A stretch of 42,574 nt of DNA from a virus. Taxonomy: Duplodnaviria; Heunggongvirae; Uroviricota; Caudoviricetes. This document shows positions 28,144-42,574 of the stretch, in pieces. The DNA lies in the IMG/VR virus record IMGVR_UViG_2675903468_000002, positions 1 through 42,574 of that record; one strand, 5' to 3'. Position 1 is the stretch's first letter. Every line of letters begins with the position of its first letter. The notes below the pieces were generated by a model, which was not told where the DNA came from, did not search any database, and worked only from the letters and a program-made list of their open reading frames with translations. A program made the position numbers and the translations under genes.

Positions 28144-28650
28144 GTCTTTTTCCCTTTTCCGGTTAACGTGACATACCAATAACTCTTGTCGAAAAAGCCA
28201 GCAAGCTGAAAGACCGGTATTCGTAACCACCAGCACGTTTAACGTCCTGTGCCGTTTTTCGGGTACAAAAAACAGCCCGACGGCGGTTTTAAGGAAGGAG
28301 TCGAAGCAACCACTCTTAACATCATAATTGAATTTTTACGTACGTAAACCACAAATACGCCACTCAAATGTTAATGCTCTATAACAAAACCAAACATGCG
28401 AATAACACATATTACACCAAATACATCATTGTTATTTTTCAATGAAAAATGAGTAAATAATGTATTTCATTAATTAAATTCCGCATTACACAAAAATATC
28501 GACAAATTACACCAACGCGCATAAATGAGATCTTGATCATATTATCAATCACTAAATTAAACTTGCCTCTTGAAATAACCACATTGATTAGATGAATATT
28601 TATCGCGCAGTGACATCATTTTTTAAAATAGTTCAAAAAAAGGGTTCGTG

Positions 28651-29760
28651 ATGAAAAAATTAACGGTGGCAATTTCTGCTGTGGCTGCATCAGTATCAGT
28701 ACTGATGGCGATGTCTGCTCAGGCAGCAGAGATTTATAATAAAGACAGCAACAAGTTGGATCTGTACGGAAAAGTTAATGCTAAGCACTACTTCTCCTCT
28801 AACGATGCAAATGATGGCGACACAACTTATGCTCGTCTGGGTTTCAAAGGCGAAACTCAGATCAACGATCAACTGACTGGTTTCGGTCAGTGGGAATATG
28901 AATTCAAAGGAAACCGTACTGAAGAACAGGGAGCAGCCAAAGATAAAACCCGTCTTGCATTTGCAGGGCTTAAATTCGGTGACTACGGCTCCGTCGATTA
29001 CGGTCGTAACTACGGTGTAGCATACGATATCGGTGCATGGACTGACGTTCTGCCAGAATTCGGTGGAGATACTTGGACCCAAACAGATGTATTCATGACT
29101 GGTCGCACCACTGGTGTTGCAACTTATCGTAACAACGACTTCTTTGGTCTGGTTGATGGTCTGAATTTTGCTGCACAGTACCAGGGTAAGAATAATCATG
29201 ATCGTAGTAGCTTAGATAACTACACCAAAGGCAATGGCGATGGTTTTGGTTTCTCTGCGACCTATGAATACGAAGGTTTCGGCATTGGTGCAACGTATGC
29301 GAAATCTGATCGTACCGACACTCAAGTCAAATTGGGTAAACTTCTCCCAGGAGTATTTGCTTCCGGCGAAAATGCAGAAGTCTGGGCTGCAGGTCTGAAA
29401 TACGACGCAAACAACGTTTATCTGGCAACAACCTATTCAGAAACCCAGAATATGACTAAATTCGCAGATTACTTTGTGGCTAATAAAGCACAAAACTTCG
29501 AAGCTGTTGCACAATATCAGTTCGATTTCGGTCTGCGTCCGTCTGTTGCTTATCTGCAATCAAAAGGTAAAGATCTTGGCATTTTTGGTGACCAAGATTT
29601 AGTCAAATATGTTGATGTTGGCGCAACTTATTATTTCAACAAAAATATGTCTACATTCGTTGATTACAAAATCAACCTGCTTGACAAAAATGACTTTACT
29701 AAAGCTCTTGGTGTAAACACTGACGATATCGTTGCTGTAGGTATGGTATACCAGTTCTAA
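28651..29760 (+). CDS. nmpC: Outer membrane porin, NmpC/Lc/OmpC family (phage-encoded)
   Basis: [25 protein letters not shown] signal peptide then [24 protein letters not shown]...ending VGMVYQF; trimeric-porin hallmarks; closely matches recalled DLP12 NmpC; opposite strand to Q and lysis genes as in DLP12. Confidence 0.95.
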
Positions 29761-29777
29761 TCTGGTTAATAAAGGAT

Positions 29778-29829
29778 ATGCTGAGAAGGTTTTATCTTCT
29801 CAGCATATAAGTGGCTCCCTCAAGCCACT
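29778..29829 (+). terminator. Two hairpins immediately 3' of the porin gene
   Basis: 11-bp perfect stem ATGCTGAGAAG/CTTCTCAGCAT (29778-29806) and 7-bp stem AAGTGGC/GCCACTT; weak U-tracts. Confidence 0.4.
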
Positions 29830-29897
29830 TCTTTAAGAAGCATTAGAGCCCTGCTTCTTACTATCTAAACTTTCTGTTATATATTACCCTTTATCTT

Positions 29898-29926
29898 GGG
29901 GGTGTTTTTACGCCCCATTTTTTATT
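29898..29926 (+). terminator. Intrinsic terminator between porin and Q (plus-strand orientation)
   Basis: GGGGGTG-TTTTTA-CGCCCC followed by ATTTTTTATT. Confidence 0.55.
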
Positions 29927-29940
29927 AAAAAATAATCGTA

Positions 29941-30324
29941 TTAATTAAGCTTAGTAACATCAATATCCATCTCTAAGCAAATGTCTAATGCCATTAACAT
30001 ACCTTCGATTATTCCCTCTGCTTTCTGTAACCTTTTCCCGATATACCCATCAGAGCAATTATGCTTCCGCGCCAGCATCATAAACGTCATCCCACCAACA
30101 TAATAATCCACCAGCAAATCATGTAAGCCATTGTTGCTCTTTTTCAGACAGGCCATACATCCACAAATGATCATCGCGTCATCGTCACAGCATTGCGGAC
30201 GAGATCTTACTTTTGAAGGAATTAATCCCTTAAAACCGGCGGCAACGGACGACCAGGTCACATCTTCATGATTATTAGCCGCCCACGCTCCCCAACGCTC
30301 AAGAACCATCTGAATATCACGCAT
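29941..30324 (-). CDS. Q: Late-gene antiterminator Q (phage 82 / DLP12 QuuD type)
   Basis: 127 aa, [24 protein letters not shown]...[18 protein letters not shown]; matches recalled QuuD; located just upstream of the porin, as quuD-nmpC in DLP12. Confidence 0.85.
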
Positions 30325-30581
30325 CAGCGCAGTACCTCCTGCACCAGTTTTTCAAACTTTCCAACTTTGGTTTCCAGCTCTGCCACACAATCCACCAGCT
30401 CATCCACTGCTTTTTGTGCGCGGTGTTTCGCCTGCATCAGTTCCCTGAGCGCTGGCACCATATCCTTACGAATGGCATCTTTTGTTACGCCTGTCTTTTC
30501 CAGTTGTTCCGCCTGTCGTAACATTTCCTGTGCCTGTTTACGTAATTGTTCAGGCGTAAAAGTCATGGTCTGGTTGTTCAA
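30324..30581 (-). CDS. Small helical protein of unknown function
   Basis: 85 aa, charged coiled-coil-like sequence; start overlaps the DnaB stop. Confidence 0.5.
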
Positions 30582-31969
30582 AAGAAACGCTCCATCTTAC
30601 TGCTGTCGGTTCGCTTATTGCTGTATCTGCGCGGCTGGGGCTGCTGCATTGGGGTGGAAAGAATCTGTGCGCTTTCCTGGTCTACGGGCAGAAAATGTCC
30701 GTTATAAAAACGCCGGTAAATCGTCCCCAGAGAACCGTTACGTTGTTTCGTGATATTGATTTCTGCAATGCCTCTGGCCTGCGTATCCGGGTTGTACACT
30801 TCATCCCTGTAAAGCATCAGAATGATGTCTGCATCCGCCTCTATTTCTCCGGAATTTTTCAGGTCTGAGTTCATAGGGCGTTTATTGGGCCTGGACTCCA
30901 CACCACGGGAAAGCTGGCTCAGCGCAATCAACGGAAAACCACCGGATTTTGCCAGGCCTTTAAGCCCCTTTGAGATTTCACCCACGGCAAGGTCATGACG
31001 CCCCGTGGTTCGGGTTTTTATCAGCCCGAGATAATCAACCACCACCAGCGCCGTTTCCGGATGTTTAATCAGGTGATGTTTCGTTGTTGCGCATATCTCA
31101 TCAATGGTCAGGTTCGCCTGGTCCACCATCCAGATATTGCGCCCGGTCATCCGCCCCACTCCTTGTGAGAAACGTGCCCAATCTTCGTCTTCAAAGTGAG
31201 TGACAGATTTCAGGCGTGATACCGGCATTCCTCCAGCCGCAGATACCATGCGTTCACCAATCTGGATGTTCGCCATTTCCATTGTGAACAGAAGAACACC
31301 ATGCCCCTGCTCAGTCACCTTGTCGATGATATCCAGCGCCAGTTCGGTTTTGCCCATTGACGGACGAGCCGCAATAAATACCAGGTCGCCGGGAACCATG
31401 CCACCTGTTTTTGCGTCCAGTTCATCAATACCGGTCATCAACGTCCTGGATTTCTCCAGTCCCTGATTCCGGCATTCAACACGCTCAACCACTTCCGGAA
31501 GCACATCATCAATATGTACCGGCTGAATAGCGCCCTTTTCCGTCGACAATGAGGCCATCATGTTCTGCGCATCCTTCAGAGCATCTTCAGCCGCTTCACA
31601 GGTATGCGCATCACGTAATTTCTGCAGCGCCTCATTCAGCGTTTTTTCTGCATCGCGCAATGCGGCATTGCGCCGCAACGCTGCAACATAGTGCTCCAGT
31701 GAAGACTTCACCCAGGTTTTGCGCCCGGTATCAGTAATCACCGGGGCAAGTTCCGGCATCTCATTACACAACAGCACAGGGTCAATCACGCCTGAAACAC
31801 GGGCCTGTCTGCAGATGCCTGTGTAGATATCCCGATACGCTCGTACAGAAAAAACGTCCGCAGGTAGTGTGGCCAGAATATCCATCACTTCAGGATCTGC
31901 CCCACGCAGAAAGAACGCGCCAATGACAGCGCCTTCCAGGTCATCGTTACGCCAGACTGGTGTTGTCAT
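30578..31969 (-). CDS. Replicative DNA helicase, DnaB family
   Basis: 463 aa; N-terminal DnaB domain, Walker A ARPSMGKTELALD, and RecA-like C-terminal domain. Confidence 0.85.
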   Translation of the reverse strand: MTTPVWRNDDLEGAVIGAFFLRGADPEVMDILATLPADVFSVRAYRDIYTGICRQARVSGVIDPVLLCNEMPELAPVITDTGRKTWVKSSLEHYVAALRRNAALRDAEKTLNEALQKLRDAHTCEAAEDALKDAQNMMASLSTEKGAIQPVHIDDVLPEVVERVECRNQGLEKSRTLMTGIDELDAKTGGMVPGDLVFIAARPSMGKTELALDIIDKVTEQGHGVLLFTMEMANIQIGERMVSAAGGMPVSRLKSVTHFEDEDWARFSQGVGRMTGRNIWMVDQANLTIDEICATTKHHLIKHPETALVVVDYLGLIKTRTTGRHDLAVGEISKGLKGLAKSGGFPLIALSQLSRGVESRPNKRPMNSDLKNSGEIEADADIILMLYRDEVYNPDTQARGIAEINITKQRNGSLGTIYRRFYNGHFLPVDQESAQILSTPMQQPQPRRYSNKRTDSSKMERFF

Positions 31970-32853
31970 GCAGCCACACCTCTGATACGAGAACGGTAGC
32001 TGGGCCAGTTAAACGACAACCAGTTGCGCCCCCCGTCTGTGATCCTGTCGGCAATGCGGGGGCTGATGAACGCCCACAACTCTTCCGGTGAAAGGTTGCT
32101 GATCAGGATGGTGGGCAGGATGCTTTCGTACCGGGCATTGATAATTTCCTGCAAAATAGCCATTTCAGCCGCGCTGCCAAACTGAACGCCGACTTCGTCG
32201 ATGATCAGCAAATCCAATGACGCATAATGCTCAATAACTTCATCCGCTGTTTTTTCGCTGTCATTCCGCCAGCAGTTTTTCACAGCACGGGTAAGGCGCA
32301 TCACATCAGTAATCTCCACACTGGCCAGATGGTTACGGATGATGTGTTTTGCCATAGCCACAGCCAGATGATTTTTTCCGGTACCACAACTGCCTGTCAG
32401 AACAAGACTGGTACCGTTAGCCAGAACATCCTCCCAGCTCTCTGCATAGCGGCGGCAGGCAGCAAGATTTCTGGCTGCATCAGAGTTAATCTCCTGATAG
32501 TTTTCAAACTCACAGTCGCGAAACCTACAGGCAACACCAGCATTCTCAATCAGCACATCAGCTTTCATTGCAACCAGAGTCCGATGTGTCACATCCATTT
32601 CATCCACCAGACACTCCGGACAGCGGGAAATTTTTGAGACAGCGCCCCCCTGCCGATCATCCCACACCAGTATATGCGTACGATATTTACCGTGTTTTTC
32701 GCAGCATCCAACCCCTTCAGATTCCCGGCAGGCGCGGTAAGGCCATGGCTTTTCGCCATTCTGAGCAAATGCAATCTCTGCCCGTAACTCATCCATTCGC
32801 GCCTGTAGTCTTGTTTGTTTCTCACGTTGGTTAATCGTCATCATCGCTGTCAC
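31966..32853 (-). CDS. DnaC/IstB-like AAA+ helicase loader with N-terminal Cys-rich region
   Basis: Walker A GSCGTGKNHLAVA, Walker B LLIIDEVG; Cys cluster CCEKHG...CPEC in N-terminus. Confidence 0.8.
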   Translation of the reverse strand: MTAMMTINQREKQTRLQARMDELRAEIAFAQNGEKPWPYRACRESEGVGCCEKHGKYRTHILVWDDRQGGAVSKISRCPECLVDEMDVTHRTLVAMKADVLIENAGVACRFRDCEFENYQEINSDAARNLAACRRYAESWEDVLANGTSLVLTGSCGTGKNHLAVAMAKHIIRNHLASVEITDVMRLTRAVKNCWRNDSEKTADEVIEHYASLDLLIIDEVGVQFGSAAEMAILQEIINARYESILPTILISNLSPEELWAFISPRIADRITDGGRNWLSFNWPSYRSRIRGVAA

Positions 32854-32854
32854 C

Positions 32855-33847
32855 TCAGAATGTCAGTTTGTCACTGGATTTACCGAATTTGTCAGACATG
32901 GCTCCCAGGCCAGCCAGGACATCGACCTGTCGCTGTCGCCCACCTCCGGGAGCGGCTGGCTGTTGCCAGTAATCTTCGAAGTGACGATCGGGTCCAAAGA
33001 ACGTCGCAGCCTGCTTCACGAACTGTGTGCCGGTATTTCCTGTAGCACGTACCCAGGCGGCATACCGCTTCACACCATCAAGCATGGTCTCCGGTTTTAT
33101 TCCCTCCCTGATACGGGCTTTCCAGGCTTTGAAGGCTGCTGACTTGGAATTACCACCAGCACGTTTGGGATATTCCTGCCAGGCCTGTTCAAATTCCGGT
33201 GAATATTCCTGTCGGGCAGAACGCGCTGGTGCAGACGCGTCAGCGGATGCTCCAATAGTGTTTTTAGTCTCCGTTGTAATCTCTGTAGTAATCTCTGTAT
33301 TTGTATCAACATTCGGCGTATCCCCTGTTCCGTTATGACGTTGGGGGGTGTTCCGTTTTAACGTAATAGCTGTATCGCTGATTGAGTTATTGCTGTTACT
33401 TTCTGGCGAAACAGAAGAAGGTGTGGTGATGGCAGCAATTGCCTGTGGGTTGATCCCGACAAACAAAATATTGCTGCATTTCACCCCGTCTAGCATTTCC
33501 ACCGTACGTAAATCCAGAGTAATAAACCCAGCATCACGAAGACGCTTCAGCGCATCTGCGGTTTCCCTTTTCCCAAAGCCAAACTGTTCAGCAAACGCCT
33601 GATAGCTTCTTTGCAGCTTGTCACCCTGAAAACGCTTGCGATATCCCAGTAAAGCCCCGGTATGCTCATCCCTGACTTCTGTCGGGCGGTACCAGTAAAC
33701 AATCTCTGAAAGCAGCGCAATGGCAGTCGCATCCGGACGACCACTTGGTAGCCGAATATGTTTCCACCAGTTCGCTGGTGTGACATTGCCAGAAATATTG
33801 AGTTGGCCAATAGCCATAACTTCAGGTGTAGGAGCGTAACGGCTCAC
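32855..33847 (-). CDS. Replication initiator (lambda O-like organiser) with internal ori-like repeats
   Basis: 330 aa; GTG start with GGAGG RBS; low-complexity linker TNTEITTEITTETK encoded by DNA direct repeats; position upstream of the helicase loader. Confidence 0.6.
   Translation of the reverse strand: MSRYAPTPEVMAIGQLNISGNVTPANWWKHIRLPSGRPDATAIALLSEIVYWYRPTEVRDEHTGALLGYRKRFQGDKLQRSYQAFAEQFGFGKRETADALKRLRDAGFITLDLRTVEMLDGVKCSNILFVGINPQAIAAITTPSSVSPESNSNNSISDTAITLKRNTPQRHNGTGDTPNVDTNTEITTEITTETKNTIGASADASAPARSARQEYSPEFEQAWQEYPKRAGGNSKSAAFKAWKARIREGIKPETMLDGVKRYAAWVRATGNTGTQFVKQAATFFGPDRHFEDYWQQPAAPGGGRQRQVDVLAGLGAMSDKFGKSSDKLTF
33266..33360. repeat. Iteron-like direct repeats (candidate origin of replication) inside the initiator gene
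   Basis: Tandem GTAATCTCTGTA x2 (33276-33299) with flanking partial copies, plus TGTTCCGTT repeated at ~33326 and ~33349. Confidence 0.4.
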
Positions 33848-34068
33848 ACGGCACCTCCCAGACGCTTAAACATTTTTCCAGACAGAAATACCGCCAGCGG
33901 GTAACTGATGGTGTAGCTACGCCCCTGTAGTTCGCACACGACTTTCTGGCTTTCAGCGTTGACTAGGCAAACCCGCAGAACGTGACCGTTGCTGGTGGCG
34001 AACCACTGCCCCACACGGGGGCAACGGTTGTATCGGTGATACAGGGAATTAACGATGCGGCGAATCAT
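33844..34068 (-). CDS. Small hypothetical protein
   Basis: 74 aa with strong AGGAGG RBS; function unknown. Confidence 0.5.
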   Translation of the reverse strand: MIRRIVNSLYHRYNRCPRVGQWFATSNGHVLRVCLVNAESQKVVCELQGRSYTISYPLAVFLSGKMFKRLGGAV

Positions 34069-34616
34069 GGGTGCGCCTCCTTGTCAGAACCATTAAGTCT
34101 GGAATCAACAAGTGCAGCGCCAAAAACAGCATCTCCTACACGGTCATACAGCTTGCTCGCCAGCGGAGATTCAACGGCCTTAAGCATGGGGTAAAGCTGG
34201 CTTTTCCAGATTTGATGGATTTCACGCAAATGCAGGTATACGCCTCTGGCGTTTCGTGCAACAGCTGACATATCAACCGCGTCAGCACCAGATAAATTCT
34301 TCTCCATCTGGTTAAAGGCGTTGATGTATGCCTCTTTGAACCGGGCTGCACGTTTGCCAGTAAAGCCCATTGCCAGGAACGCGAAGCCATCGCGGGTGAT
34401 TTGATAGCAAGGTAGTTTGCGGCCTGTGCAATCGGTGTAATCACTCACCGAAAAATTGCGGGCAGTGAATGATGCGGAGCATTCAAGCGTGCGGATCTTT
34501 TTCAGTACATCGTCATGACGTTTGGAGAAGAAGTTGGCAACAGCCAGGGATGAAGTAACAGCCTGACCATCAACGATGGCAATTTCAGGTTGAGTGAGGG
34601 TTGGGATCGTAGCCAT
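34065..34616 (-). CDS. Rha-family phage regulatory protein
   Basis: Start MATIPTLTQPEIAIVDGQAVTSSLAVANFFSKRHDDVLKKIR with AAGAGG RBS; Rha-type domain. The ORF-track extension to 34937 starts with TTG and contains a terminator, so it is not used. Confidence 0.7.
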   Translation of the reverse strand: MATIPTLTQPEIAIVDGQAVTSSLAVANFFSKRHDDVLKKIRTLECSASFTARNFSVSDYTDCTGRKLPCYQITRDGFAFLAMGFTGKRAARFKEAYINAFNQMEKNLSGADAVDMSAVARNARGVYLHLREIHQIWKSQLYPMLKAVESPLASKLYDRVGDAVFGAALVDSRLNGSDKEAHP

Positions 34617-34632
34617 GATGGCAGCCTCTTTG

Positions 34633-34658
34633 GTGATTTTAAATAACTCACCACCAAG
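34633..34658 (-). promoter_or_regulatory. Inverted repeat overlapping a candidate promoter just upstream of the Rha gene
   Basis: GGTGA-ttttaaataac-TCACC palindrome within an AT-rich TTATTTAAAAT stretch ~20 nt upstream of the Rha start. Confidence 0.3.
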
Positions 34659-34781
34659 GCTTTCCACGACCTTATTGGTGGTGAGACGTACAGGGGTGGA
34701 AATACCGGTCACCAAAGAACCCGGCCCAACCGAAGTTGGCCCTGCACGCCCCACCATAATTTGGGCGTAATGCTGCTCATG

Positions 34782-34808
34782 ACACAAAAAAACCGCAAGA
34801 GCGCGGTT
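34782..34808 (-). terminator. Intrinsic terminator downstream of the Lar-like gene
   Basis: Minus strand AACCGC-GCUCUU-GCGGUU followed by UUUUUUUGUG. Confidence 0.6.
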
Positions 34809-34933
34809 GTGCGCTTTGGTGAATTCCGGGTTTCCACGCCCGGCACCCGCTTTATAAGGTGCTGGAATAGTGTAACGTCCCGAAATTGCAGAATCAATAT
34901 GTTGGTTGCGGATCATTTTGTACCTACTCGCCG

Positions 34934-35143
34934 TCAATCCGCGTTTTCGCGCTGATTCCAGTCATGAACAGCACGTTCTTTCGAATCAGGGATCTGGTTT
35001 GCGTTACAGCAAGTACATGCGACGTAATAACCATCATCGCCATCCAGAAAATATTTCACCTCAATGAGTTGTACTTCCGGATTTCCGCAGAACGGGCAAG
35101 GTTTCAGATCGACATCACCAGTTACACACGTCTTGGTTTGCAT
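34934..35143 (-). CDS. Small zinc-ribbon protein, Lar-like restriction-alleviation family candidate
   Basis: 69 aa with CPFCG...CTCC cysteine motif; TAATG overlap with the upstream antirepressor gene suggests translational coupling. Confidence 0.5.
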   Translation of the reverse strand: MQTKTCVTGDVDLKPCPFCGNPEVQLIEVKYFLDGDDGYYVACTCCNANQIPDSKERAVHDWNQRENAD

Positions 35144-36003
35144 TATTTGTTCTCCTGTAAAAGATTCGCGAGCTCAGTGTTATGGGTAAACAGCCCATCC
35201 CATGTTTTCTTCATCGGTAGTTCACCGTTCAGATAATGGCGATATAACCAGGCGGCACCTTTTTTCTTCAGGAGTGGTTTGAAAATCTCGCGCATTTCCC
35301 CGTTTTCCTGCTCAACCTGCCCAGAACGCTCAGTCAGGTATTGGTCACGTGCATACGCTTTTACACGCCAGCGCGGATACATAGCCTCCGGACGGTCGTC
35401 ATACAGCCAGTTACGCTCTTCAAGGAACGCATTAATCTGACGAGTGTTTACACCGTTGAGTTGTTTGCAGAACTGCACAGGAGTGATGCCATCGGCGAGA
35501 TGGCTTTCGAGTTTGCTGATGTAGCGAGCCTGACGCTCTGCATACCCGAGAGCAAGGCGTTCGGATTTTTTGGCTTCAATCCACGCTTCAGCAGCAGCGA
35601 TCGGATCGTCAAAGTCTGGAATAGTGTTTGAAGAAGGCGTTGCTTTACGAAAATACGCCTGCTCCATTTTTTCGAAGAACGACCAGGCCTCGTCTGTATC
35701 GACGATTTTTGACATGCGGGCAGCGCCGCGTTCTGTCCAGAGAGTGAGTGAACGCGCATTTCTTCCAACAGAGTGACCAATAGTCACTCTGTCCTTAAAT
35801 GCTTTCAGGGCATCACCAGTTAAAAGAAAATAATGTTTCCCATCTTCAAAGCGCTCAAGATTGCGCGACAGATTTTTACGGATATTAGCTTCATCCGTGC
35901 CATATCCCGCCGCCAGCGTTTCAGTGGTAACTACGCGTACCCCCTGCCACTCAATCACTGGCAGGTTTTCAGGGTTGACTAATTTTTGTTTATTGATCAT
36001 CAT
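35143..36003 (-). CDS. Antirepressor-like protein (ORF6N/Bro-N-type N-terminal domain, KilA-C-like C-terminus)
   Basis: 286 aa; N-terminal LPVIEWQGVRVVTTETLAAGYGTDEANIRKNLSRNLERFEDGKHYF resembles phage antirepressor N-domains. Confidence 0.6.
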   Translation of the reverse strand: MMINKQKLVNPENLPVIEWQGVRVVTTETLAAGYGTDEANIRKNLSRNLERFEDGKHYFLLTGDALKAFKDRVTIGHSVGRNARSLTLWTERGAARMSKIVDTDEAWSFFEKMEQAYFRKATPSSNTIPDFDDPIAAAEAWIEAKKSERLALGYAERQARYISKLESHLADGITPVQFCKQLNGVNTRQINAFLEERNWLYDDRPEAMYPRWRVKAYARDQYLTERSGQVEQENGEMREIFKPLLKKKGAAWLYRHYLNGELPMKKTWDGLFTHNTELANLLQENK

Positions 36004-36078
36004 GAAATCCCCTTACTAATCAGAATAAGTCGGGCTGACGGAGTGCGGCCCGGCTTTTCTTTTTCGTTCAGTAACCGT

Positions 36079-36378
36079 TCATCGCGTGGACATTTCTGAT
36101 GAATCACTCTGCCCATCTTCCGTGCGCGCTAGGCTTGGATTTGAAATTTTGCGTAACGAATCAGGAATTCCATCTTCAGGGTGAGGATAAAGATCTGGCC
36201 TTAAGCCATGTGGCGTGACCTTCCATGCAACTACTTCACATACGCGTAAAACAAAACGAGCAGGAATTGTGTTTTTTGAAAACCACTGATTCACCGCTTG
36301 CGGAGTTACACCAAGGTTTCGTGCAATGGCATTTTGCGCAATTAATGCGCGAAGTACGTCGTAATCATTTCCTTTCAT
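36079..36378 (-). CDS. Cro-like HTH regulator (first gene of the rightward early operon)
   Basis: 99 aa; HTH LRALIAQNAIARNLGVTPQAVNQWF; divergent from the cI-like gene across a 133-bp operator region. Confidence 0.65.
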   Translation of the reverse strand: MKGNDYDVLRALIAQNAIARNLGVTPQAVNQWFSKNTIPARFVLRVCEVVAWKVTPHGLRPDLYPHPEDGIPDSLRKISNPSLARTEDGQSDSSEMSTR

Positions 36379-36511
36379 AGCAAAACACCAATATTAACTT
36401 GATAACACAAGAATATATCAAGATTAAATTAACATGCAAGTTGCAAAAGGATCGAATACACTAAAATCAAGTAAAGATTTATCCTTGTAAAGAAACCCAC
36501 AGGACCTGGTC
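36379..36511. promoter_or_regulatory. Immunity operator/promoter region (OR-like) with divergent promoters
   Basis: Minus-strand promoter TTGCAT-16-TATATT; plus-strand candidate TTGCAA-15-TAAAAT; inverted repeats built on CTTGAT/ATCAAG half-sites (for example CTTGATAACACAAGAATATATCAAG). Confidence 0.5.
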
Positions 36512-37201
36512 ATGAAGAACGTCAAAAACACGGAAAATCGAATAGCCGCGATGCTGAAAGCAAAAGGATGGACTCAGGCTCAACTGGCCCGCAAGTTAGG
36601 TGTGAGTGCGCAATCAGTGCAGTACTGGACAACAGGAAAAACATTTCCACGGAGTGATAAGCTCGCGCATTTATCAGAGATTAGCGGTTATCCACAATCC
36701 TGGTTCTTAGGTGAAGACTCCTCACCAACCTTTTCCTCGCAAGAGAAACACCAGACAAGAACAGATAGCGTCGTGTTTAATGTCCTTGATGTTGAGTTTA
36801 GTTGCGGTGATGGAACTCATGTCCGTGGTGACTTGATAGATGTAGTGCGCTCAATAGAACTTGATCCTGAATATGCCCGACGTCTTGTTGGAAATCGGGC
36901 ATTCAAAAATATAGAAATAGGTAACGCCAGAGGAGACAGTATGGCTCCCACAATCTCACCTGGCGACCTTCTTTTTCTTGATAAGACAGTAACTTATTTT
37001 GATGGCGATGGTATTTATGCATTTTGTTTTGATGGAGAATGCTACGTGAAAAGGCTTCAAAAAATTGGAAGCAAAATCATGGTGTTATCTGATAACCCCA
37101 ATTATCAACCATGGAGCATCGAAAAAGAGGGGTTAGCTCTGCTTTATATCCAGTCTAAAGTGATCTCATCAGTACCATTCAACATAAACAGATTTGGTTA
37201 G
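36512..37201 (+). CDS. cI: CI-type prophage repressor (HTH plus LexA-like S24 autopeptidase domain)
   Basis: 229 aa; HTH GWTQAQLARKLGVSAQSVQYWTTGK; C-terminal S24 domain with GDSMAPTISPGDLLFLDK and downstream Lys. Confidence 0.85.
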   Translation: MKNVKNTENRIAAMLKAKGWTQAQLARKLGVSAQSVQYWTTGKTFPRSDKLAHLSEISGYPQSWFLGEDSSPTFSSQEKHQTRTDSVVFNVLDVEFSCGDGTHVRGDLIDVVRSIELDPEYARRLVGNRAFKNIEIGNARGDSMAPTISPGDLLFLDKTVTYFDGDGIYAFCFDGECYVKRLQKIGSKIMVLSDNPNYQPWSIEKEGLALLYIQSKVISSVPFNINRFG

Positions 37202-37212
37202 TCTTTGATTTT

Positions 37213-37236
37213 AACGGGCTTTGCCCGTTTTTTTCT
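37213..37236 (+). terminator. Intrinsic terminator after the repressor gene
   Basis: AACGGGC-TTT-GCCCGTT followed by TTTTTTT. Confidence 0.7.
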
Positions 37237-37264
37237 GCCTGAAATATACGATATCAATTTTTTC

Positions 37265-37293
37265 TTGACAGCCTATTTCCCAAAGCATAATAT
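37265..37293 (+). promoter_or_regulatory. PL-like early-left promoter with operator-like palindrome
   Basis: TTGACA-17 nt-TAATAT; flanked by ATCAAT and the ATCAATTATAACTTGAT palindrome sharing half-sites with the OR region. Confidence 0.5.
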
Positions 37294-37346
37294 CGCACCA
37301 TCAATTATAACTTGATTTAATTCAATTTAAAATTGTTGGTGGATAT

Positions 37347-37799
37347 ATGAAGACACTAAAAGCAACTCCAGAAACAACTAATTTTATCAACTGCGGCTGT
37401 GTTACGCTTAAGGGCTTAGAACTTGATTCCTTTGCATTAAATATTGCAAATTTGCTAAGTGCTGTACGCACATTCCATCTTCTGGATTGTGCTCGCTCAA
37501 AGGAACTGGGCATTGAGGTAATGGAATTTATCCATGAATATGCTCTATCTGCTGCTTCTCCTGCACAACAAAAACAATCCTTCCCTGAAAGCTGGCTGGT
37601 TAACCTTCGCACCCAACGCGAAGCCTGCGGCTTAACAACAGCCGAACTCGCCAGGCTGCTCGCTCTTGATGAAGAAATCATCATCCAGTGGGAGAGCGGA
37701 GAGTATGAACCAACCATCAGTATGCTTATCCCACTGGCAAATATTCTTGGCTGCGATCCGATGTGGTTATTGACTGGTAGCAATGCTGCAAAGGAGTAA
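37347..37799 (+). CDS. HTH (XRE-type) protein with N-terminal domain of unknown function; first gene of early-left operon
   Basis: 150 aa; C-terminal HTH CGLTTAELARLLALDEEIIIQWESGEYEPT; not Arg-rich and not N-like. Confidence 0.6.
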   Translation: MKTLKATPETTNFINCGCVTLKGLELDSFALNIANLLSAVRTFHLLDCARSKELGIEVMEFIHEYALSAASPAQQKQSFPESWLVNLRTQREACGLTTAELARLLALDEEIIIQWESGEYEPTISMLIPLANILGCDPMWLLTGSNAAKE

Positions 37800-37804
37800 C
37801 AGCA

Positions 37805-37996
37805 GTGAATAGTAATATCCATGACAATTTCGAAGGTATTTGTCTGGCATCGGATTCATTTGCAATAAACATTCATAGTCTGTTGTGCGCTGCGCAAGTT
37901 TTACAGATGTCAAATAATCAGAATGCAAAAACATTAGGTGATGAAATCCTGTCTTTTGCATGTGAATATTCGAAAGCTGCAGTCAAAAAGAATTAG
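37805..37996 (+). CDS. Small protein paralogous to the N-terminal domain of the preceding HTH protein
   Basis: 63 aa; GTG start 8 nt after an AAGGAG RBS that overlaps the upstream stop; shares DSFA-NI, LL, K-LG-E, F--EY pattern with residues ~25-70 of the upstream protein. Confidence 0.5.
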   Translation: MNSNIHDNFEGICLASDSFAINIHSLLCAAQVLQMSNNQNAKTLGDEILSFACEYSKAAVKKN

Positions 37997-38073
37997 CGCA
38001 ATAACAATAAATATTCACTGAATGTTTATTACGGTTTTATCGCCGGGGATTGTTGCAACCTTTATTCGCAGGA

Positions 38074-38187
38074 GATTATGTTATGACTTTCCTGAAACAT
38101 AAGGCATCGTATAAAACTGCCTGCCTCATTGCACAACATGGAGATTCTTATCTTCATATAGCCAACCTGTATTTGCGCAAAGCATAT
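38074..38187 (+). CDS. Very small ORF (37 aa), hypothetical
   Basis: AGGAGA RBS then ATG; MTFLKHKASYKTACLIAQHGDSYLHIANLYLRKAYGR. Confidence 0.3.
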
Positions 38188-38200
38188 GGGAGATAAATAA

Positions 38201-38389
38201 ATGAAAGAAAAACAACAAAACATAACACATAAAAAAGTAAGAGTGTTGCTAACCATTGAAAATGGTGAAGTAATTTACTCAAAACATCTGTTGGATAATG
38301 AATTCGTTGGCTGCATGGATACATTTCTGTGGATGGCAAAAAGAGCTGGCTACACGATTATTCCACCAGCAAAGGAGCAAACATTATGA
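38201..38389 (+). CDS. Small hypothetical protein
   Basis: 62 aa with GGGAGA RBS; AT-rich. Confidence 0.4.
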   Translation: MKEKQQNITHKKVRVLLTIENGEVIYSKHLLDNEFVGCMDTFLWMAKRAGYTIIPPAKEQTL

Positions 38390-38967
38390 ATCATTCAGAG
38401 TTCCGACCAGAAGTTACGCCACATGGCATAAAAATTGGCAATACAACCATTGATTATGTTGAGGCCGTACAGCGGCTTAATGATGGTGAATACGATTATC
38501 CAAACTCACACGGTTTAAGAATCATGCAATGTATTGCAGAAGCCGATGATGCAGGGTTGCTGGGACGATTTTCAGTCGATATGAAGGTTGCTCAGTGGCG
38601 ATGGCTGTATGTGACTACGTTTATAAATGAAGAGGAAGACAAGAACGGTACCGTTGATATCCCTAACGATAACGGAACTACAGATCACGCGGTTATTTAC
38701 AAGGGTAAACATGGTTGCCTGAGTATCTACCCCGGACCACTTCGTATTGCCCTGCAAAACCACGTCGAATGGGGATTTATTGAAAAATATGGCGAAGCTG
38801 AAGGCATGGGGCGAGTTCTGTTTCTCTATCAAAAAATGCTCATCGCAGATCCTGATAATGGTTTCATTATTTCTGCTATGGGGCGCGAAGGGCTTGAACT
38901 CCTTCTGGATGAAATGATGAACGACCTGAATACTCATGGTATGCCAGAAGCGCCAGTGACACATTAA
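38386..38967 (+). CDS. Hypothetical protein (193 aa), no recognisable motif
   Basis: Start MNHSEFRPEVTPHG with AAGGAG RBS overlapping the upstream stop; the longer ORF-track start at 38329 lacks an RBS. Confidence 0.55.
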   Translation: MNHSEFRPEVTPHGIKIGNTTIDYVEAVQRLNDGEYDYPNSHGLRIMQCIAEADDAGLLGRFSVDMKVAQWRWLYVTTFINEEEDKNGTVDIPNDNGTTDHAVIYKGKHGCLSIYPGPLRIALQNHVEWGFIEKYGEAEGMGRVLFLYQKMLIADPDNGFIISAMGREGLELLLDEMMNDLNTHGMPEAPVTH

Positions 38968-39012
38968 ATATTAAGAAGAATATAATTCTTCCATCTTTTA
39001 CCAACCGTTTAT

Positions 39013-39120
39013 ATGAAAAGCAACCGTGAATTAAACAGAGTAAAACTGATTTTAATCCTTGCCACAGTACTGACACTAACTGAAATCATTATTCTCTTTC
39101 TTGCGCTGTCAGTCGGTTAA
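39013..39120 (+). CDS. Small membrane peptide (35 aa), hypothetical
   Basis: MKSNRELNRVKLILILATVLTLTEIIILFLALSVG; single TM helix. Confidence 0.3.
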   Translation: MKSNRELNRVKLILILATVLTLTEIIILFLALSVG

Positions 39121-39143
39121 AAATATCGGGATACCACAGACCA

Positions 39144-39332
39144 ATGAGACTGTATTTCACAATAGTAATTTTACTGGCAATTATCGCATGCATTTACGGA
39201 TTACTCGTTCCGTTCCTTATATCCATGAAGGATACGATAGCAGTTATTTCTGGCTTTGCACTGGCGTTTCTGACCCCGCCCTGCATTTATGCCATTTACA
39301 AGGGTCTTTCTTTCGCTAAGGATAAAAGATGA
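39144..39332 (+). CDS. Small two-TM membrane protein coupled to the SPFH gene
   Basis: 62 aa, MRLYFTIVILLAIIACIYGLLVPFLISM...; stop overlaps the SPFH start (ATGA). Confidence 0.5.
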   Translation: MRLYFTIVILLAIIACIYGLLVPFLISMKDTIAVISGFALAFLTPPCIYAIYKGLSFAKDKR

Positions 39333-40156
39333 AAAAAATTATTTTTGCTTTAGCCATTGTTCTGCCGACTATTGGCCTTGTCGGTTGCGATCGCGTTGAA
39401 CCAGGTAATGTTGGCATCAAGGTAAATAAACTGGGCGACGACAAAGGCGTCGGTGAGGTGGTCGGTGTTGGTCGCTACTGGACTGGCTGGAATACTGAAG
39501 TTTATATCTTCCCCACCTTCAAACAAATGAAGACCTACGATGAACCGTTCAGTTTCCAGATGAGTGACGGTACAACCATCGGCTATCACATTGGCGTGGC
39601 CTACAAAGTTGATCCATCCAAAGTTACCACGGTGTTTCAGACCTACCGCAAAGGCGTGGATGACATTACCGACACTGACCTGCGCCAGAAGATCGCCGAC
39701 GCACTCAACCGACTGGCCAGCAAAATGACCACTGACAAATTTATCGACGGCGGCAAGTCTGAGCTGCTGGATGAAGCTCTTAAAGACATTCAGGCAGAGA
39801 TGACACCTATCGGTATTCAGGTAATGAGCCTCTCATATGTGGGTAAGCCGGAGTACCCGCCAACCGTTATCGACAGCATTAATGCCAAAGTCACGGCAAA
39901 CCAGAAAACCCTGCAGCGCGAGCAGGAAGTCAAGCAACGTGAAGCGGAGGCCAACATGCTACGTGCGGAAGCTGCCGGACAGGCTGATGCCATTCGAACA
40001 AAAGCCCAGGCAGAAGCCGATGCCATTCGTTTACGCGGCGAAGCTCTACGCCAGAACCCAGGCGTCATGGAGCTGGAAGCCATCAACAAGTGGAACGGTA
40101 CACTGCCGCAATACATGACCAGTGGTGCCAATACACCATTTATCCAGATTAAATAA
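39329..40156 (+). CDS. SPFH/band-7 (prohibitin/HflKC-like) domain lipoprotein
   Basis: 275 aa; lipobox LVGC after signal peptide; SPFH-like core followed by Ala/Glu/Arg-rich coiled coil (REQEVKQREAEANMLRAEAAGQADAIRTKAQAEADAIRLRGEA). Confidence 0.7.
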   Translation: MKKIIFALAIVLPTIGLVGCDRVEPGNVGIKVNKLGDDKGVGEVVGVGRYWTGWNTEVYIFPTFKQMKTYDEPFSFQMSDGTTIGYHIGVAYKVDPSKVTTVFQTYRKGVDDITDTDLRQKIADALNRLASKMTTDKFIDGGKSELLDEALKDIQAEMTPIGIQVMSLSYVGKPEYPPTVIDSINAKVTANQKTLQREQEVKQREAEANMLRAEAAGQADAIRTKAQAEADAIRLRGEALRQNPGVMELEAINKWNGTLPQYMTSGANTPFIQIK

Positions 40157-40196
40157 CTTATATGCCCGGCAGGCCGCCGGGCTAAGGGAAATGCAG

Positions 40197-40568
40197 ATGA
40201 ACACCCAGAATACTCAACCGCAAATAATGAACTATGACCCGAATCTGACGTCATGCGGACGCATGGCAAAACAAACCGTTCGATTAACTTTCGGACTATG
40301 GGAATACCGCGAAACATTCGAAGTTACTGTCGGCGGCAATCTGACCGGACTGGATGTTATCAGTTGCGCTATTGAAAGCCTGTACGCAACGCTACCTTAT
40401 GAAGAAGTCGAGGATGAGCGCACAGGGGAAACAGATATCATGGCCACCATTAATATTGGCGAACTGATATGTCAGGATGAAGACCTGTCCGGAGAACTCT
40501 GGCTTGCCGGGATGCTTATCTCAGCAGAAATTATCAGTATTGAACCCGCTACAAACATACGGCTCTGA
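40197..40568 (+). CDS. Hypothetical acidic protein (123 aa)
   Basis: Start chosen at second ATG, 7 nt after AAGGGAA; no recognisable motif. Confidence 0.5.
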   Translation: MNTQNTQPQIMNYDPNLTSCGRMAKQTVRLTFGLWEYRETFEVTVGGNLTGLDVISCAIESLYATLPYEEVEDERTGETDIMATINIGELICQDEDLSGELWLAGMLISAEIISIEPATNIRL

Positions 40569-40599
40569 AGTTCTCACTATTCAGAGAGCAGGAGAAAAA

Positions 40600-40842
40600 A
40601 TGTTTGCTTTGATTAATCAGGGACAACTGTATACCGACAGTGCCGGTTACCCGGTAAAAATTATTCGCTGTATAAATAACACCGTGTTGTACAGAAGAAT
40701 GGATGGGCGAACACAATCGGTAAAAATGAACGATTTTAATGAATCGTTTGAACGGATCGATCACCAGGAATACCGACAAATTCTGGCAGAAACAGAGCAG
40801 GAAGCTCATCTGAAAAAATTACGAGCCATGAAAAGGAAGTAG
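40600..40842 (+). CDS. Small hypothetical protein (80 aa)
   Basis: AGGAGA RBS; MFALINQGQLYTDSAGYPVKIIRC... Confidence 0.5.
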   Translation: MFALINQGQLYTDSAGYPVKIIRCINNTVLYRRMDGRTQSVKMNDFNESFERIDHQEYRQILAETEQEAHLKKLRAMKRK

Positions 40843-40845
40843 CGA

Positions 40846-40992
40846 ATGAATAAAGCGTTTGAGCTATGGGTACGCCAGCGTTACGGCAATCGTTATGACC
40901 TGACGCGAGATGTTGACGGTTTCTACTGCCGTGAAGTTGTGAAACGAATGTTTGAGGTGTGGTGCCACTGCCGTGGGCTGAAAGTTTTATGA
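40846..40992 (+). CDS. Very small ORF (48 aa), hypothetical
   Basis: Starts 4 nt after upstream stop; MNKAFELWVRQRYGNRYDLTRDVDGFYCREVVKRMFEVWCHCRGLKVL. Confidence 0.3.
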   Translation: MNKAFELWVRQRYGNRYDLTRDVDGFYCREVVKRMFEVWCHCRGLKVL

Positions 40993-40999
40993 GGTTGAC

Positions 41000-41254
41000 A
41001 TGCAGACAATCATCTATCAAATAACACCAAGTAAATGGTGTACAGAAAGCACCCTCATTGCTTCGACAGGGCTAAAACCAGGCACCATTGAGCGAGCCAG
41101 GAAAAAATCATGGCTACAGGGGAAAGAATATCGACATTACGCTGTCGATGGAATTCCGAAGAGCAACAGTGAATGCGTATACAACATAGAGGAAATTATG
41201 CGCTGGATCGAAAATCAGAAACAACCAGGTGTTAAAAATGCAAGTTCCGGTTAA
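41000..41254 (+). CDS. xis: Excisionase-like protein
   Basis: 84-aa basic protein immediately upstream of and co-oriented with the integrase; GAGG RBS. Confidence 0.5.
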   Translation: MQTIIYQITPSKWCTESTLIASTGLKPGTIERARKKSWLQGKEYRHYAVDGIPKSNSECVYNIEEIMRWIENQKQPGVKNASSG

Positions 41255-41287
41255 CCTGTTAATGCTCCTGGACGTCTGGGAGGTTTA

Positions 41288-42574
41288 ATGAGTAATACAT
41301 CATACCCAACAGGCGTTGAAAATCATGGCGGATCACTCCGCATATGGTTTCACTATAACGGCAAACGTGTCAGAGAAAACCTCGGTGTTCCTGACACCGC
41401 CAAAAACCGGAAAATCGCAGGTGACCTCCGCACTTCCGTTTGTTTTGCAATCAGAATGGGGAGTTTCGACTATGCAGCACAGTTCCCTGAGTCCCCTAAC
41501 CTGAAACACTTTGGTCTGGGGAAAAGAGAGATAACCATTAAAGCACTTTCGGAAAGATGGCTTGAACTGAAGAAAATAGAGATTTGTGCAAATGCACTTA
41601 ACCGTTACCAGTCAGTAATTAAAAACATGTTGCCAATGTTAGGTGAAAAAAGACTGGTTTCATCTGTAACAAAAGAGGATTTGCTTTTCGTAAGGAGAGA
41701 TCTGTTGACCGGTTATCAAAAGCTTTCTAACGGAAAAATTTCTTCCATAAAAGGACGCTCAGTGGTCACAGTAAACTACTATATGACAACCATAGCTGGA
41801 ATGTTTCAATTTGCAACAGATAATGGTTATACATCAGGAAATCCATTTAACGGTCTGACACCATTAAAAAAGTCCAAGATAGAACCAGATCCCCTCACCC
41901 GTGACGAATTTATTCGTTTTATTGAGGCTTGCCGTCATCAACAAACAAAAAACCTGTGGATTATCGCTGTATACACGGGTATTCGTCACGGGGAGCTGGT
42001 ATCACTGGCCTGGGAAGATATAGACCTTAAAGCGAGGACTATAACCATCCGCCGGAATTATACAAAACTAGGCGAATTCACTCCACCAAAAACTGATGCT
42101 GGTACCGGAAGAACGATTCATCTAGTTCAACCAGCTATTGATGCTCTTAAAAGCCAAGCGGAAATGACCATGCTTGGAAAACAGCATTCTGTAGAGGTAA
42201 AGCAGAGGGAATATGGGAGAAGTACTGTGCATAAATGCACTTTTGTTTTTAGTCCTCAGGTAATAAAACAGCGGCAGTTTTCCGGACCGCACTATAAGGT
42301 TGACTCCATCAGGGAGTCATGGACAAGTATCTTAAAACGCGCAGGTCTGAGACACAGAAAATCGTATCAATCCAGGCATACCTATGCATGCTGGTCACTT
42401 GCCGCAGGAGCTAATCCTAGTTTTATCGCAAGCCAGATGGGCCACACAAACGCACAAATGGTATTCAATGTTTACGGAGCATGGATGAAAGACAACAATC
42501 ACGAACAAATAGAACTTCTTAACAGAAGACTATCTGAAAGTGTCCCATGCATGCCCCATAAGAAAGCGGGGTAA
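41288..42574 (+). CDS. int: Tyrosine-type site-specific integrase
   Basis: 428 aa; catalytic-domain motifs including GIRHGEL (Arg), HxxR-type RHTYACW and the tyrosine in VFNVYGAWM; stop codon is the last 3 nt of the window. Confidence 0.9.
   Translation: MSNTSYPTGVENHGGSLRIWFHYNGKRVRENLGVPDTAKNRKIAGDLRTSVCFAIRMGSFDYAAQFPESPNLKHFGLGKREITIKALSERWLELKKIEICANALNRYQSVIKNMLPMLGEKRLVSSVTKEDLLFVRRDLLTGYQKLSNGKISSIKGRSVVTVNYYMTTIAGMFQFATDNGYTSGNPFNGLTPLKKSKIEPDPLTRDEFIRFIEACRHQQTKNLWIIAVYTGIRHGELVSLAWEDIDLKARTITIRRNYTKLGEFTPPKTDAGTGRTIHLVQPAIDALKSQAEMTMLGKQHSVEVKQREYGRSTVHKCTFVFSPQVIKQRQFSGPHYKVDSIRESWTSILKRAGLRHRKSYQSRHTYACWSLAAGANPSFIASQMGHTNAQMVFNVYGAWMKDNNHEQIELLNRRLSESVPCMPHKKAG

Follow-up and report, generated by a model that had tools for sequence, protein, structure and literature searches.

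In phage lambda, the gene of a cI-type repressor with a helix-turn-helix (HTH) and an S24 domain is followed by a strong, co-directional sigma-70 promoter under multiple operators that share the consensus of the right operator region (OR); the two early operons diverge, and the late switch is made by the Q antiterminator. The same layout is present in the DNA analysed here, the Caudoviricetes record IMGVR_UViG_2675903468_000002 (42,574 nucleotides, referred to below as the window), whose interval 37202-37346 consists of the terminator of the cI transcript, the leftward early promoter PL and its operators (OL), and belongs to a lambdoid prophage of E. coli of the phiP27 type. Unlike lambda, the window contains no N gene, no Arg-rich open reading frame (ORF), no boxA/boxB and no recognisable tL1-type terminator, and the first gene behind PL encodes a DNA-binding HTH protein. 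The put systems of HK022 and HK639 are comparable in that they belong to lambdoid phages without a functional N-type antiterminator; however, the window has no put-like two-stem RNA, and its PL leader is too short for one. A repressor gene followed by the repressor-controlled promoter of an N-less leftward operon is also found in the lambdoid prophage Qin (dicA-dicBp-ydfABC-dicF-dicB; PMC10448788), although its genes are unrelated to those of the window, Qin is cryptic, and the L10-type protein described below is absent from it.

Concerning the rightward early operon, the described systems to compare are P4 (seqA-CI RNA-seqC), the immI region of P1/P7 (a1b1-c4-a2b2-icd/ant) and the isrK-orf45-anrP locus of Gifsy-1. 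In P4 the CI RNA pairs with both seqA and seqC, which leads to premature termination before the replication genes (as summarised in PMC4825925). IsrK is a structural homologue of P4 seqA (PMC4825925), and the C4 and isrK models of Rfam pick up relatives of P4 CI and seqA (PMC10111431). Transcription of orf45-anrP in Gifsy-1 starts at the isrK promoter and passes the IsrK terminator in part of the transcripts; the short IsrK RNA activates translation of the long one (PMC4825925). The window shares with P4 and P1/P7 the RNA families, the order target-antisense-target and a downstream target that lies over the ribosome-binding site (RBS); as between P1 and P7, the specificities differ between relatives and, as in P4, the module precedes replication genes and is spanned by an ORF. 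It differs from both in that the module lies inside a lambdoid operon, that of the rightward early promoter PR, with a protein repressor also present, and is followed by a rha-type gene and by O, DnaC, DnaB and Q. The likeness to Gifsy-1 comprises a homologous IsrK with its promoter and terminator, a C4-like region in which orf45 starts (ATG at +105/+106), and an antirepressor-like gene. However, the Gifsy-1 locus is located downstream of antQ and its orf45 is a separate 45-codon ORF, whereas the module of the window is located upstream of the replication genes and Q, and its leader ORF continues in frame into rha, an arrangement also reported for S. dysenteriae.

The order int-xis-…-SPFH lipoprotein-…-L10-type HTH-repressor on one side, and cro-ant-isrK/C4-rha-type-replication-Q on the other, is common to the window, to phiP27 (repressor L11, HTH protein L10, and L12-L18) and to related records of Shiga toxin (Stx) phages. 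The left arm is 92% identical to that of phiP27 at the DNA level; the two differ in immunity specificity (repressor, operators and N-terminal domain of the L10-type protein) and in the a/b specificity of C4. The N-less layout is also found in PhiR49_2, phi467 and Stx1a, Stx2a and Stx2d phage records, and this immunity region is present in 350 of 5426 complete E. coli genomes (~6%). A large group of lambdoid prophages, one of medical relevance, carries out its early programme in the absence of N. All parts of the early region of the window are of known kinds, and a literature search on N-less lambdoid early transcription and on C4/IsrK modules in lambdoid PR operons found no paper in which such a module gates the replication-Q operon. 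As a whole, the early region is probably best explained by an N-less PL/OL, a leftward operon free of terminators and a rightward operon gated by an antisense RNA. No checkpoint other than the C4/IsrK module can be recognised on the way from the early promoter to the replication and Q genes; if this module does gate Q, Stx phages that have it would also have their Shiga-toxin expression gated, and the module would be a second immunity determinant.

The PL/OL region and the absence of N

The cI gene, whose stop codon is at 37201, is followed by its terminator, by PL and by three operator-like sites (Table 1). In the alignment of this region (A1; four relatives, among them PhiR49_2, a Stx2-phage-associated prophage and phi467), no variation is seen in the -35, -10 and operator blocks, while the neighbouring flank with the cI terminator has diverged beyond recognition in two of the four. 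The terminator itself is identical in the PhiR49_2 copy and missing from the two more distant relatives. Both hexamers of PL are conserved among the relatives, and the same promoter is present in the PhiR49_2 and Stx2_EH1846 loci (L001 and L013). Because a promoter-like match alone is not significant (13 observed vs 20.8 expected from shuffled sequences), the evidence for PL lies in its sequence context: it is a sigma-70 promoter 3' of the repressor gene and co-directional with it, and its operators share the consensus of those of OR. These are 17-bp sites of the form ATCAA-N7-TTGAT, which follow each other at spacings of 47 and 21 bp. Six operator-like sites, three at OL and three at OR, make up two intervals of 85-96 bp; the whole window holds 32 such sites, and ~24 would be expected by chance. 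Conservation of the OR region follows the pattern of PL (alignment A2).

The phiP27 phage and locus L016, which have other repressors, carry different repeated motifs at PL and OR, which match within each phage; since the motifs differ with the type of repressor, the operator sites go with the repressor. Judged from its sequence, PL/OL is a lambda-style, repressor-controlled early promoter region, at which we infer binding of cI from the symmetry, position and conservation of the sites. The invariant HTH of the L10-type protein was also considered as the binder of the ATCAA-N7-TTGAT sites and was rejected: phiP27 and L016 share this HTH domain, yet have other operators that match their own OR.

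The PL leader is ~47 nt long and filled by operators, with the first downstream start codon at 37347. A hairpin of the leader (z = -4.5) was rejected as an independent RNA element, as it consists of the operator at +1 paired with the third operator and forms because tandem palindromic operators pair; its outer CACCA arm is probably located upstream of the transcription start. Also, the - strand at 37304-37331 contains a 10/12 promoter-like match (TTTAAA-16-TATAAT), directed into the 3' end of cI and also present in PhiR49_2. It is probably a by-product of the AT-rich palindrome, its -10 coinciding with the middle of the +1 operator on the opposite strand.

The first PL gene encodes a 150-aa protein of the phiP27 L10 family, the C-terminal 60 residues of which are an HTH of the P22 C2/434 type (PDB matches to P22 C2 and 434 repressor), while its N-terminal part was modelled as a two-helix hairpin (AlphaFold, AF2). 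The homologues found are all from E. coli, Shigella and Salmonella. Most of them are ~230 aa long and have two tandem HTH domains; the protein of the window is a single-HTH variant. Within the family the HTH is nearly invariant, and the N-terminal 75 residues are of at least six unrelated types, which are linked to the immunity type. In every relative the L10-type gene directly follows the repressor gene, irrespective of the type of repressor or replication module, and N is never found alongside it. The first PL protein is a DNA-binding regulator, and nothing points to RNA binding. The following 63-aa ORF is a paralogue of its N-terminal domain, and phrog_4587 matches both proteins. The two ORFs were considered as a frameshifted form of a 230-aa homologue and this was rejected, as the 230-aa form carries a second HTH and not the 63-aa sequence.

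The genes of the leftward operon (37294-42574) are closely packed. Strict and permissive scans for a hairpin plus U-tract found no credible intrinsic terminator on its sense strand from PL to the end of int, and with no recognisable leftward intrinsic terminator there is nothing leftward that calls for antitermination.

Concerning N itself, the sense-strand ORFs of both early operons gave zero matches to N families (Pfam and PHROGs, and NCBIfam for those of no assigned function). Arg-rich windows of 20 residues, scanned in six frames, occur in the early region only out of frame within larger assigned genes, and tblastn with lambda N and HK022 Nun returned only noise (E 0.68 and 0.13, respectively). 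The number of boxA-like sites is that expected by chance (23 vs 25.2), none of them in a leader, and the single boxB-like hairpin lies inside the dnaC-like gene. Three individual candidates were also discarded. A boxA-like CGCTCTTGA at 37661, followed by GATGA-AGAAA-TCATC, was rejected as a chance occurrence, as it is located within the coding sequence of the HTH protein, boxA is at chance level and N is absent. The boxB-like ATGGCGAAAAGCCAT at 32759 was rejected because it is part of the dnaC-like gene and is not preceded by a boxA. Nor is there support for an N analogue in the 74-aa ORF that precedes O (N-terminus MIRRIVNSLYHRYNRCPR); this ORF belongs to phrog_1153, a family with no assigned function, and has no helix resembling an arginine-rich motif (ARM).

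For put, a covariance model was used of eight aligned put RNAs (HK022 putL and putR and six homologues, including HK639), in which the positive controls HK022 putL and putR score 96.3 and 54.5 bits. The best score in the window is 11 bits (E 0.14, in the late region), and the model found nothing in the four relatives. Exact and degenerate pattern searches for put gave 0 matches, the folds of the early leaders are either operators or similar to those of shuffled sequences, and a Rfam scan of the early region found no family besides C4 and IsrK. Neither an N gene, nor nut sites in the PL leader or after cro, nor a put RNA was found; the absence of N is real but ordinary for the phiP27-type prophage family.

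The original prediction, made from the letters of the window, had described a near-consensus TTGACA-17-TAATAT promoter after the cI terminator, flanked by ATCAA/TTGAT palindromes, with an HTH gene and not an Arg-rich N as the first gene downstream, and had seen no N-like ORF or nut site. These observations are confirmed, and a third operator-like site is added to the two palindromes. The interpretation that had been built on them is only partly supported. It had been concluded that the phage must use another antitermination strategy, which does not follow, there being no credible leftward intrinsic terminator, and the search of the early leaders for put-like structures that had been proposed gave the negative result above. 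For annotation, the lesson is that the absence of N is not evidence for a new antitermination mechanism.

The IsrK/C4 module and the rha-to-Q operon

The module is located in the PR operon between lar and rha (Table 1). PisrK is invariant in all seven loci compared, and the sequence further upstream is unrelated between them; by its sequence it is the homologue of the Gifsy-1 isrK promoter, which has been mapped experimentally (PMC4825925). IsrK-like RNA and C4 were both identified by their Rfam covariance models, and the model RF03163 (c4-a1b1) also overlaps the IsrK-like RNA below threshold (22.2 bits vs a gathering score of 46.7). C4 and IsrK occur together at the equivalent position in phiP27, PhiR49_2, two Stx2-phage loci and the loci L014 and L015. 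C4 has two sets of targets, the downstream one over an RBS: b2 overlaps the Shine-Dalgarno sequence of rha, GAGG (34628-25; UCACCAAAGAGG), 8 nt before the rha ATG at 34616.

Across the seven loci, a1, a' and a2 change together, and so do b1, b' and b2, which gives a triple covariation. The pairing of the b loop with its target extends over 9-11 nt in cognate combinations vs 4-9 nt in non-cognate ones. Five b and five a specificities were distinguished, reassorted between loci. Because these elements co-vary and reassort, the module can be regarded, from the comparison of sequences, as functional and diversifying. Its antisense pairing would lead to a block of translation and to premature (Rho-dependent) termination of the downstream operon, as suggested by P1 and P4 (PMC4825925) and by the gap-free string of genes from rha to Q. 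According to the ORF coordinates, every gene of rha-orf74-O-dnaC-dnaB-orf85-Q overlaps or abuts the next and there is no intergenic space, so that transcription up to Q, the gene that ends the early-right operon, must pass through the IsrK/C4 leader. The assignment of dnaB in this string is based on the ORF translation, the DnaB_C Pfam match of the relatives and the annotation 'DNA helicase' in PhiR49_2.

The reading frame of rha is open across the ~300-nt IsrK/C4 leader in all seven loci, with zero stop codons; the other two frames contain 2-3 and 3-6. The leaders are 240, 243 or 246 nt long, all differences being multiples of 3 nt. At -54/-57 from the IsrK start, 7/7 loci have an in-frame start codon (ATG, or GTG in one of them), in surroundings that are otherwise unconserved; in the window it is located 54 nt upstream of isrK and 18 nt after the lar stop codon. 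This conserved in-frame start suggests, by analogy with P4, that PR transcripts may cross the IsrK terminator by being translated. A second in-frame ATG, at 34757, corresponds to the start of Gifsy-1 orf45, here fused to the rha-type gene.

At the level of gene calling, a 290-aa ORF is to be expected at 34065-34937 (-), where the relatives have genes for proteins of 220-282 aa annotated as 'hypothetical' or 'transcriptional regulator'. In this ORF, the N-terminal ~100 codons coincide with the IsrK and C4 RNAs; long ORFs annotated as "hypothetical" or "Rha" at this place conceal two structured RNAs. Also on the - strand, a strong hairpin at 34647-34685 (dG -20.2 kcal/mol) precedes UUAUUUAAA and uses the 3' arm of the outer stem of C4 as its own 5' arm; its CACCACC/GGUGGUG arms are kept in the relatives. 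It is possibly an alternative structure or an attenuator just upstream of the rha RBS.

The spacer between cro and ant contains a further hairpin (Table 1), which the original prediction had listed as a possible intrinsic terminator of the rightward operon. The hairpin exists, but its strength as a terminator is confined to the + strand, which is antisense to the PR operon; read in the direction of PR (- strand), it has a dG of -7.7 and the tail UUAUUCUGA / TTATTCTGA and is weak. The 75-nt spacer folds no better than shuffled sequences (z = -0.10), its hairpin has a 12-nt loop and no boxA is present; a similarity search of the phage collection with the spacer returned no match. The hairpin more probably ends a short RNA antisense to the RBS of ant. 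A candidate promoter, TTGACT-17-CATCAT (35975-36003, +), precedes it, and promoter and terminator together (35975-36062, +) would yield an RNA of ~53 nt antisense to the Shine-Dalgarno region of ant, which resembles the sar RNA of P22.

The other rightward elements that had been predicted fared as follows. The terminator after the Lar-like gene is real and forms the 3' end of the IsrK-like RNA. It had been taken, at 34782-34808, for a barrier that awaits a processive antiterminator; instead, it is the terminator of the IsrK-like small RNA (sRNA), located inside the C4/IsrK module, and its Gifsy-1 homologue is partly read through (PMC4825925). The suspected internal promoter before Rha matches PisrK. 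As to an RNA-based strategy, RNA is indeed involved in the rightward operon, in the form of C4 and IsrK, but a put-like RNA is excluded by the covariance model.

Table 1. Positions and properties of the early-region features of the window (Shine-Dalgarno and target positions are those of the window; strand is left empty for operators).
Feature	Position	Strand	Properties
cI-type repressor gene, 229 aa	36512..37201	+	HTH_3 + Peptidase_S24; Pfam PF01381, PF00717; PHROG 4
Intrinsic terminator of cI transcript	37213..37236	+	AACGGGCtttGCCCGTT plus T-run; 7-bp stem, 5 GC pairs; tail TTTTTTTCTGCC
Operator overlapping PL -35	37253..37269		ATCAATTTTTTCTTGAC; one mismatch to ATCAA-N7-TTGAT; core invariant in four relatives
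PL promoter	37265..37293	+	-35 TTGACA (37265-37270), 17-nt spacer, -10 TAATAT (37288-37293); 10/12 consensus
Operator at ~+1 of PL	37300..37316		ATCAATTATAACTTGAT; palindrome arms perfect, zero mismatches; conserved
Third operator-like site	37321..37337		TTCAATTTAAAATTGTT; two mismatches; abuts Shine-Dalgarno GGTGGA (37338-43)
First PL gene, 150-aa protein	37347..37799	+	XRE/HTH_3, phiP27 L10 family; Pfam HTH_3 8.6e-10; phrog_4836 8.4e-77
63-aa ORF	37805..37996	+	Paralogue of N-terminal domain of the HTH protein; BLASTP 39% identity over 46 aa, E 1e-8
Rest of leftward operon	38083..42574	+	Small ORFs, membrane protein, SPFH lipoprotein, DUF5406, DUF4222, excisionase, integrase
OR region, three operator-like sites	36387..36482		36387-403, 36417-33, 36466-82; between cro and cI; conserved blocks
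cro-type gene, first of rightward operon	36079..36378	-	YdaS/P22_Cro HTH; Pfam PF15943 1.8e-12
cro-ant hairpin	36027..36056	+	11-pair stem, U-rich tail TTCTTTTTCG
ant	36003..35143	-	ORF6N + KilAC; Pfam PF10543, PF03374
lar	35143..34934	-	Pfam PF14354
In-frame ATG	34914..34916	-	ORF open through isrK and C4 into rha
PisrK promoter	34869..34897	-	TTGATT, 17 nt, TACACT; ends 7 nt before IsrK 5' end
IsrK-like RNA	34786..34862	-	Rfam RF01394, 67 bits vs gathering 50; P4 seqA / P1 a1b1 equivalent
a1, b1 in IsrK	34837-31, 34822-14	-	a1 GUGGAAA; b1 UCACCAAAG
IsrK terminator	34808-34791 + U-run	-	Decent stem, U7 tail; stem co-varies in relatives
C4 antisense RNA	34674..34761	-	RF01695, 83.6 bits, E 1e-15, gathering 45; P4 CI RNA equivalent
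b' loop, a' in C4	34717-09, 34702-34696	-	b' CUUUGGUGA in 12-nt loop; a' UUUCCAC just after
Targets a2, b2	34667-61, 34636-27 (region 34625..34667)	-	rha leader; direct complementarity
rha-type regulator / antirepressor-like gene (AnrP equivalent)	34065..34616	-	Pfam PF09669 7e-31; phrog_821
orf74, O-like initiator, DnaC-like loader, DnaB helicase, orf85, Q	29941..34068	-	IstB_IS21, phrog_270; Q PF06530 5.5e-52 + phrog_79

Proposed mechanism and alternative explanations

In the explanation that we consider probable, the cI repressor would shut PL through three operators of the same family as those of OR. Once derepressed, PL would transcribe a ~5.3-kb string of genes, from the XRE-type DNA-binding protein to xis and int, in which processive antitermination of the N, nut or put type would be unneeded, as the string has no recognisable intrinsic terminator. 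PR would transcribe cro, ant and lar, and then the RNA module of the P4/P1/Gifsy-1 type, which has its own, constitutive-looking PisrK and would head the translationally coupled operon from rha to Q. The delayed-early switch would consist of antisense-RNA control of translation and premature termination at the leader, with Rho or polarity effects as its presumed means, and not of N. PR transcripts alone would carry the upstream start codon, and on them ribosomes that follow the polymerase would prevent the formation of the IsrK terminator and the folding of C4, as in P4; PisrK transcripts, without this codon, would be terminated or silenced. For P4, translation of kil/eta is said (in work of 1999 attributed to Forti et al.) to protect the transcripts of the upstream promoter PLL from immunity-specific termination. 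The late switch would be made by the usual Q antiterminator. More broadly, we put forward, tentatively and as a possibility, that in phiP27-type prophages, including several Stx-converting phages, the N-nut-tR1 switch has been replaced by a P4-like antisense-RNA gate to the rha-replication-Q genes, which would be bypassed by translation of the ORF that starts upstream, and which may act as a further immunity determinant, reassortable and of at least five specificities, with the invariant PL HTH protein as a possible protein partner of the switch.

Several points weigh against this explanation. The case for cI binding at the proposed operators is made up solely of their symmetry, position and conservation. 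PR is not near consensus and is not confidently placed; its candidates at 36379-36450 (-), TTGCAT-16-TATATT and TTGATA-19-TAATAT, are both below the 9/12 threshold of the scan. Concerning the leader frame, the seven open loci are ~83% identical and so are not independent, a GC-rich structured RNA has few stop codons by chance, and the Shine-Dalgarno sequence of the upstream ATG is only modest in some loci. The Gifsy-1 counterpart of this leader ORF, orf45, is a short reading frame that is not joined to anrP. In the leftward operon, two gaps of 86 nt (37997-38082) and 176 nt (38968-39143) are untranslated, and Rho could act there, although they are AT-rich and not C-rich; the leftward scans cover intrinsic terminators, Rho-dependent ones being beyond the prediction of the tools used.

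The most serious competitor, which we nevertheless consider unlikely, assigns the delayed-early genes to the internal promoter: PR would stop at the IsrK terminator, so that the immediate-early unit would be cro-ant-lar, the genes rha-O-dnaC-dnaB-Q would be transcribed from PisrK only, IsrK would open the read-through mRNA in trans, and the upstream ATG would have no role. This agrees with the invariance of PisrK in seven loci, with the decent stem and U7 tail of the IsrK terminator, and with Gifsy-1, in which PisrK alone drives orf45-anrP and IsrK supplied in trans lifts anrP translation ~140-fold (PMC4825925). It leaves unexplained, however, why the frame is open from upstream of PisrK in 7/7 loci, why the indels are multiples of three and why an ATG is kept at -54/-57; also, a constitutive promoter for the replication genes and Q would require very tight silencing in the lysogen.

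The remaining alternatives retain an antiterminator or deny the region a function. A cryptic protein antiterminator other than N, either the first PL product or a small uncharacterised protein, acting through an unrecognised site, is very improbable. The first PL gene does occupy the position of N and, like N, has a variable, immunity-linked N-terminal and a conserved C-terminal part, and several ORFs of the left operon are without an assigned function; but the conserved part is a canonical DNA-binding HTH of the P22 C2/434 type, in two copies in most homologues, the protein lacks an Arg-rich motif, the 47-nt leader shows no conserved hairpin beyond the operator palindromes, and there is no leftward terminator to overcome. 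At least as improbable is an antiterminator RNA that acts in cis near the start of one operon or of both and differs in family from HK022 put: a new class would escape searches that reach known families only, Rfam itself having no put model, yet the PL leader of ~47 nt is too short and is explained by its operators, the cro-ant spacer folds like its shuffles, the put model has no credible match in the window or in any of four relatives, and the two RNAs that were detected, C4 and IsrK, are regulators of termination and translation and not processive antiterminators. That the early region is a decayed, non-functional remnant from which N and nut were lost is hardly credible. Defective prophages are common in E. 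coli and the window is a chromosomal prophage, but the same N-less order recurs in phiP27, PhiR49_2, phi467 and many records of Stx phages, the tightly coupled genes are intact, and the covariation of the regulatory RNAs points to ongoing selection. The phage phiP27 is an isolated, inducible Stx2e-converting phage.

Minor observations

In two of the relatives, PhiR49_2 (L001, 6130-6246, +) and Stx2_EH1846 (L013, 6864-6980, +), a promoter-terminator pair is located between a roi-type gene and the IsrK promoter. It consists of TTGAAA-18-TATCTT with an extended TG and a strong terminator, GAGCCGGGttactCCCGGCTT plus T-run, is absent from the window, and may specify another small antisense RNA.

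A 370-aa ORF (28648..29760) is located 3' of Q on the opposite strand, with a 13-bp bidirectional hairpin (29776-29808) alongside it and a second + strand terminator nearby (29899-29916; all within 28648-29916). It has the appearance of a moron, an accessory gene inserted ahead of the late genes and after Q, and is reminiscent of nmpC beside quuD in DLP12.

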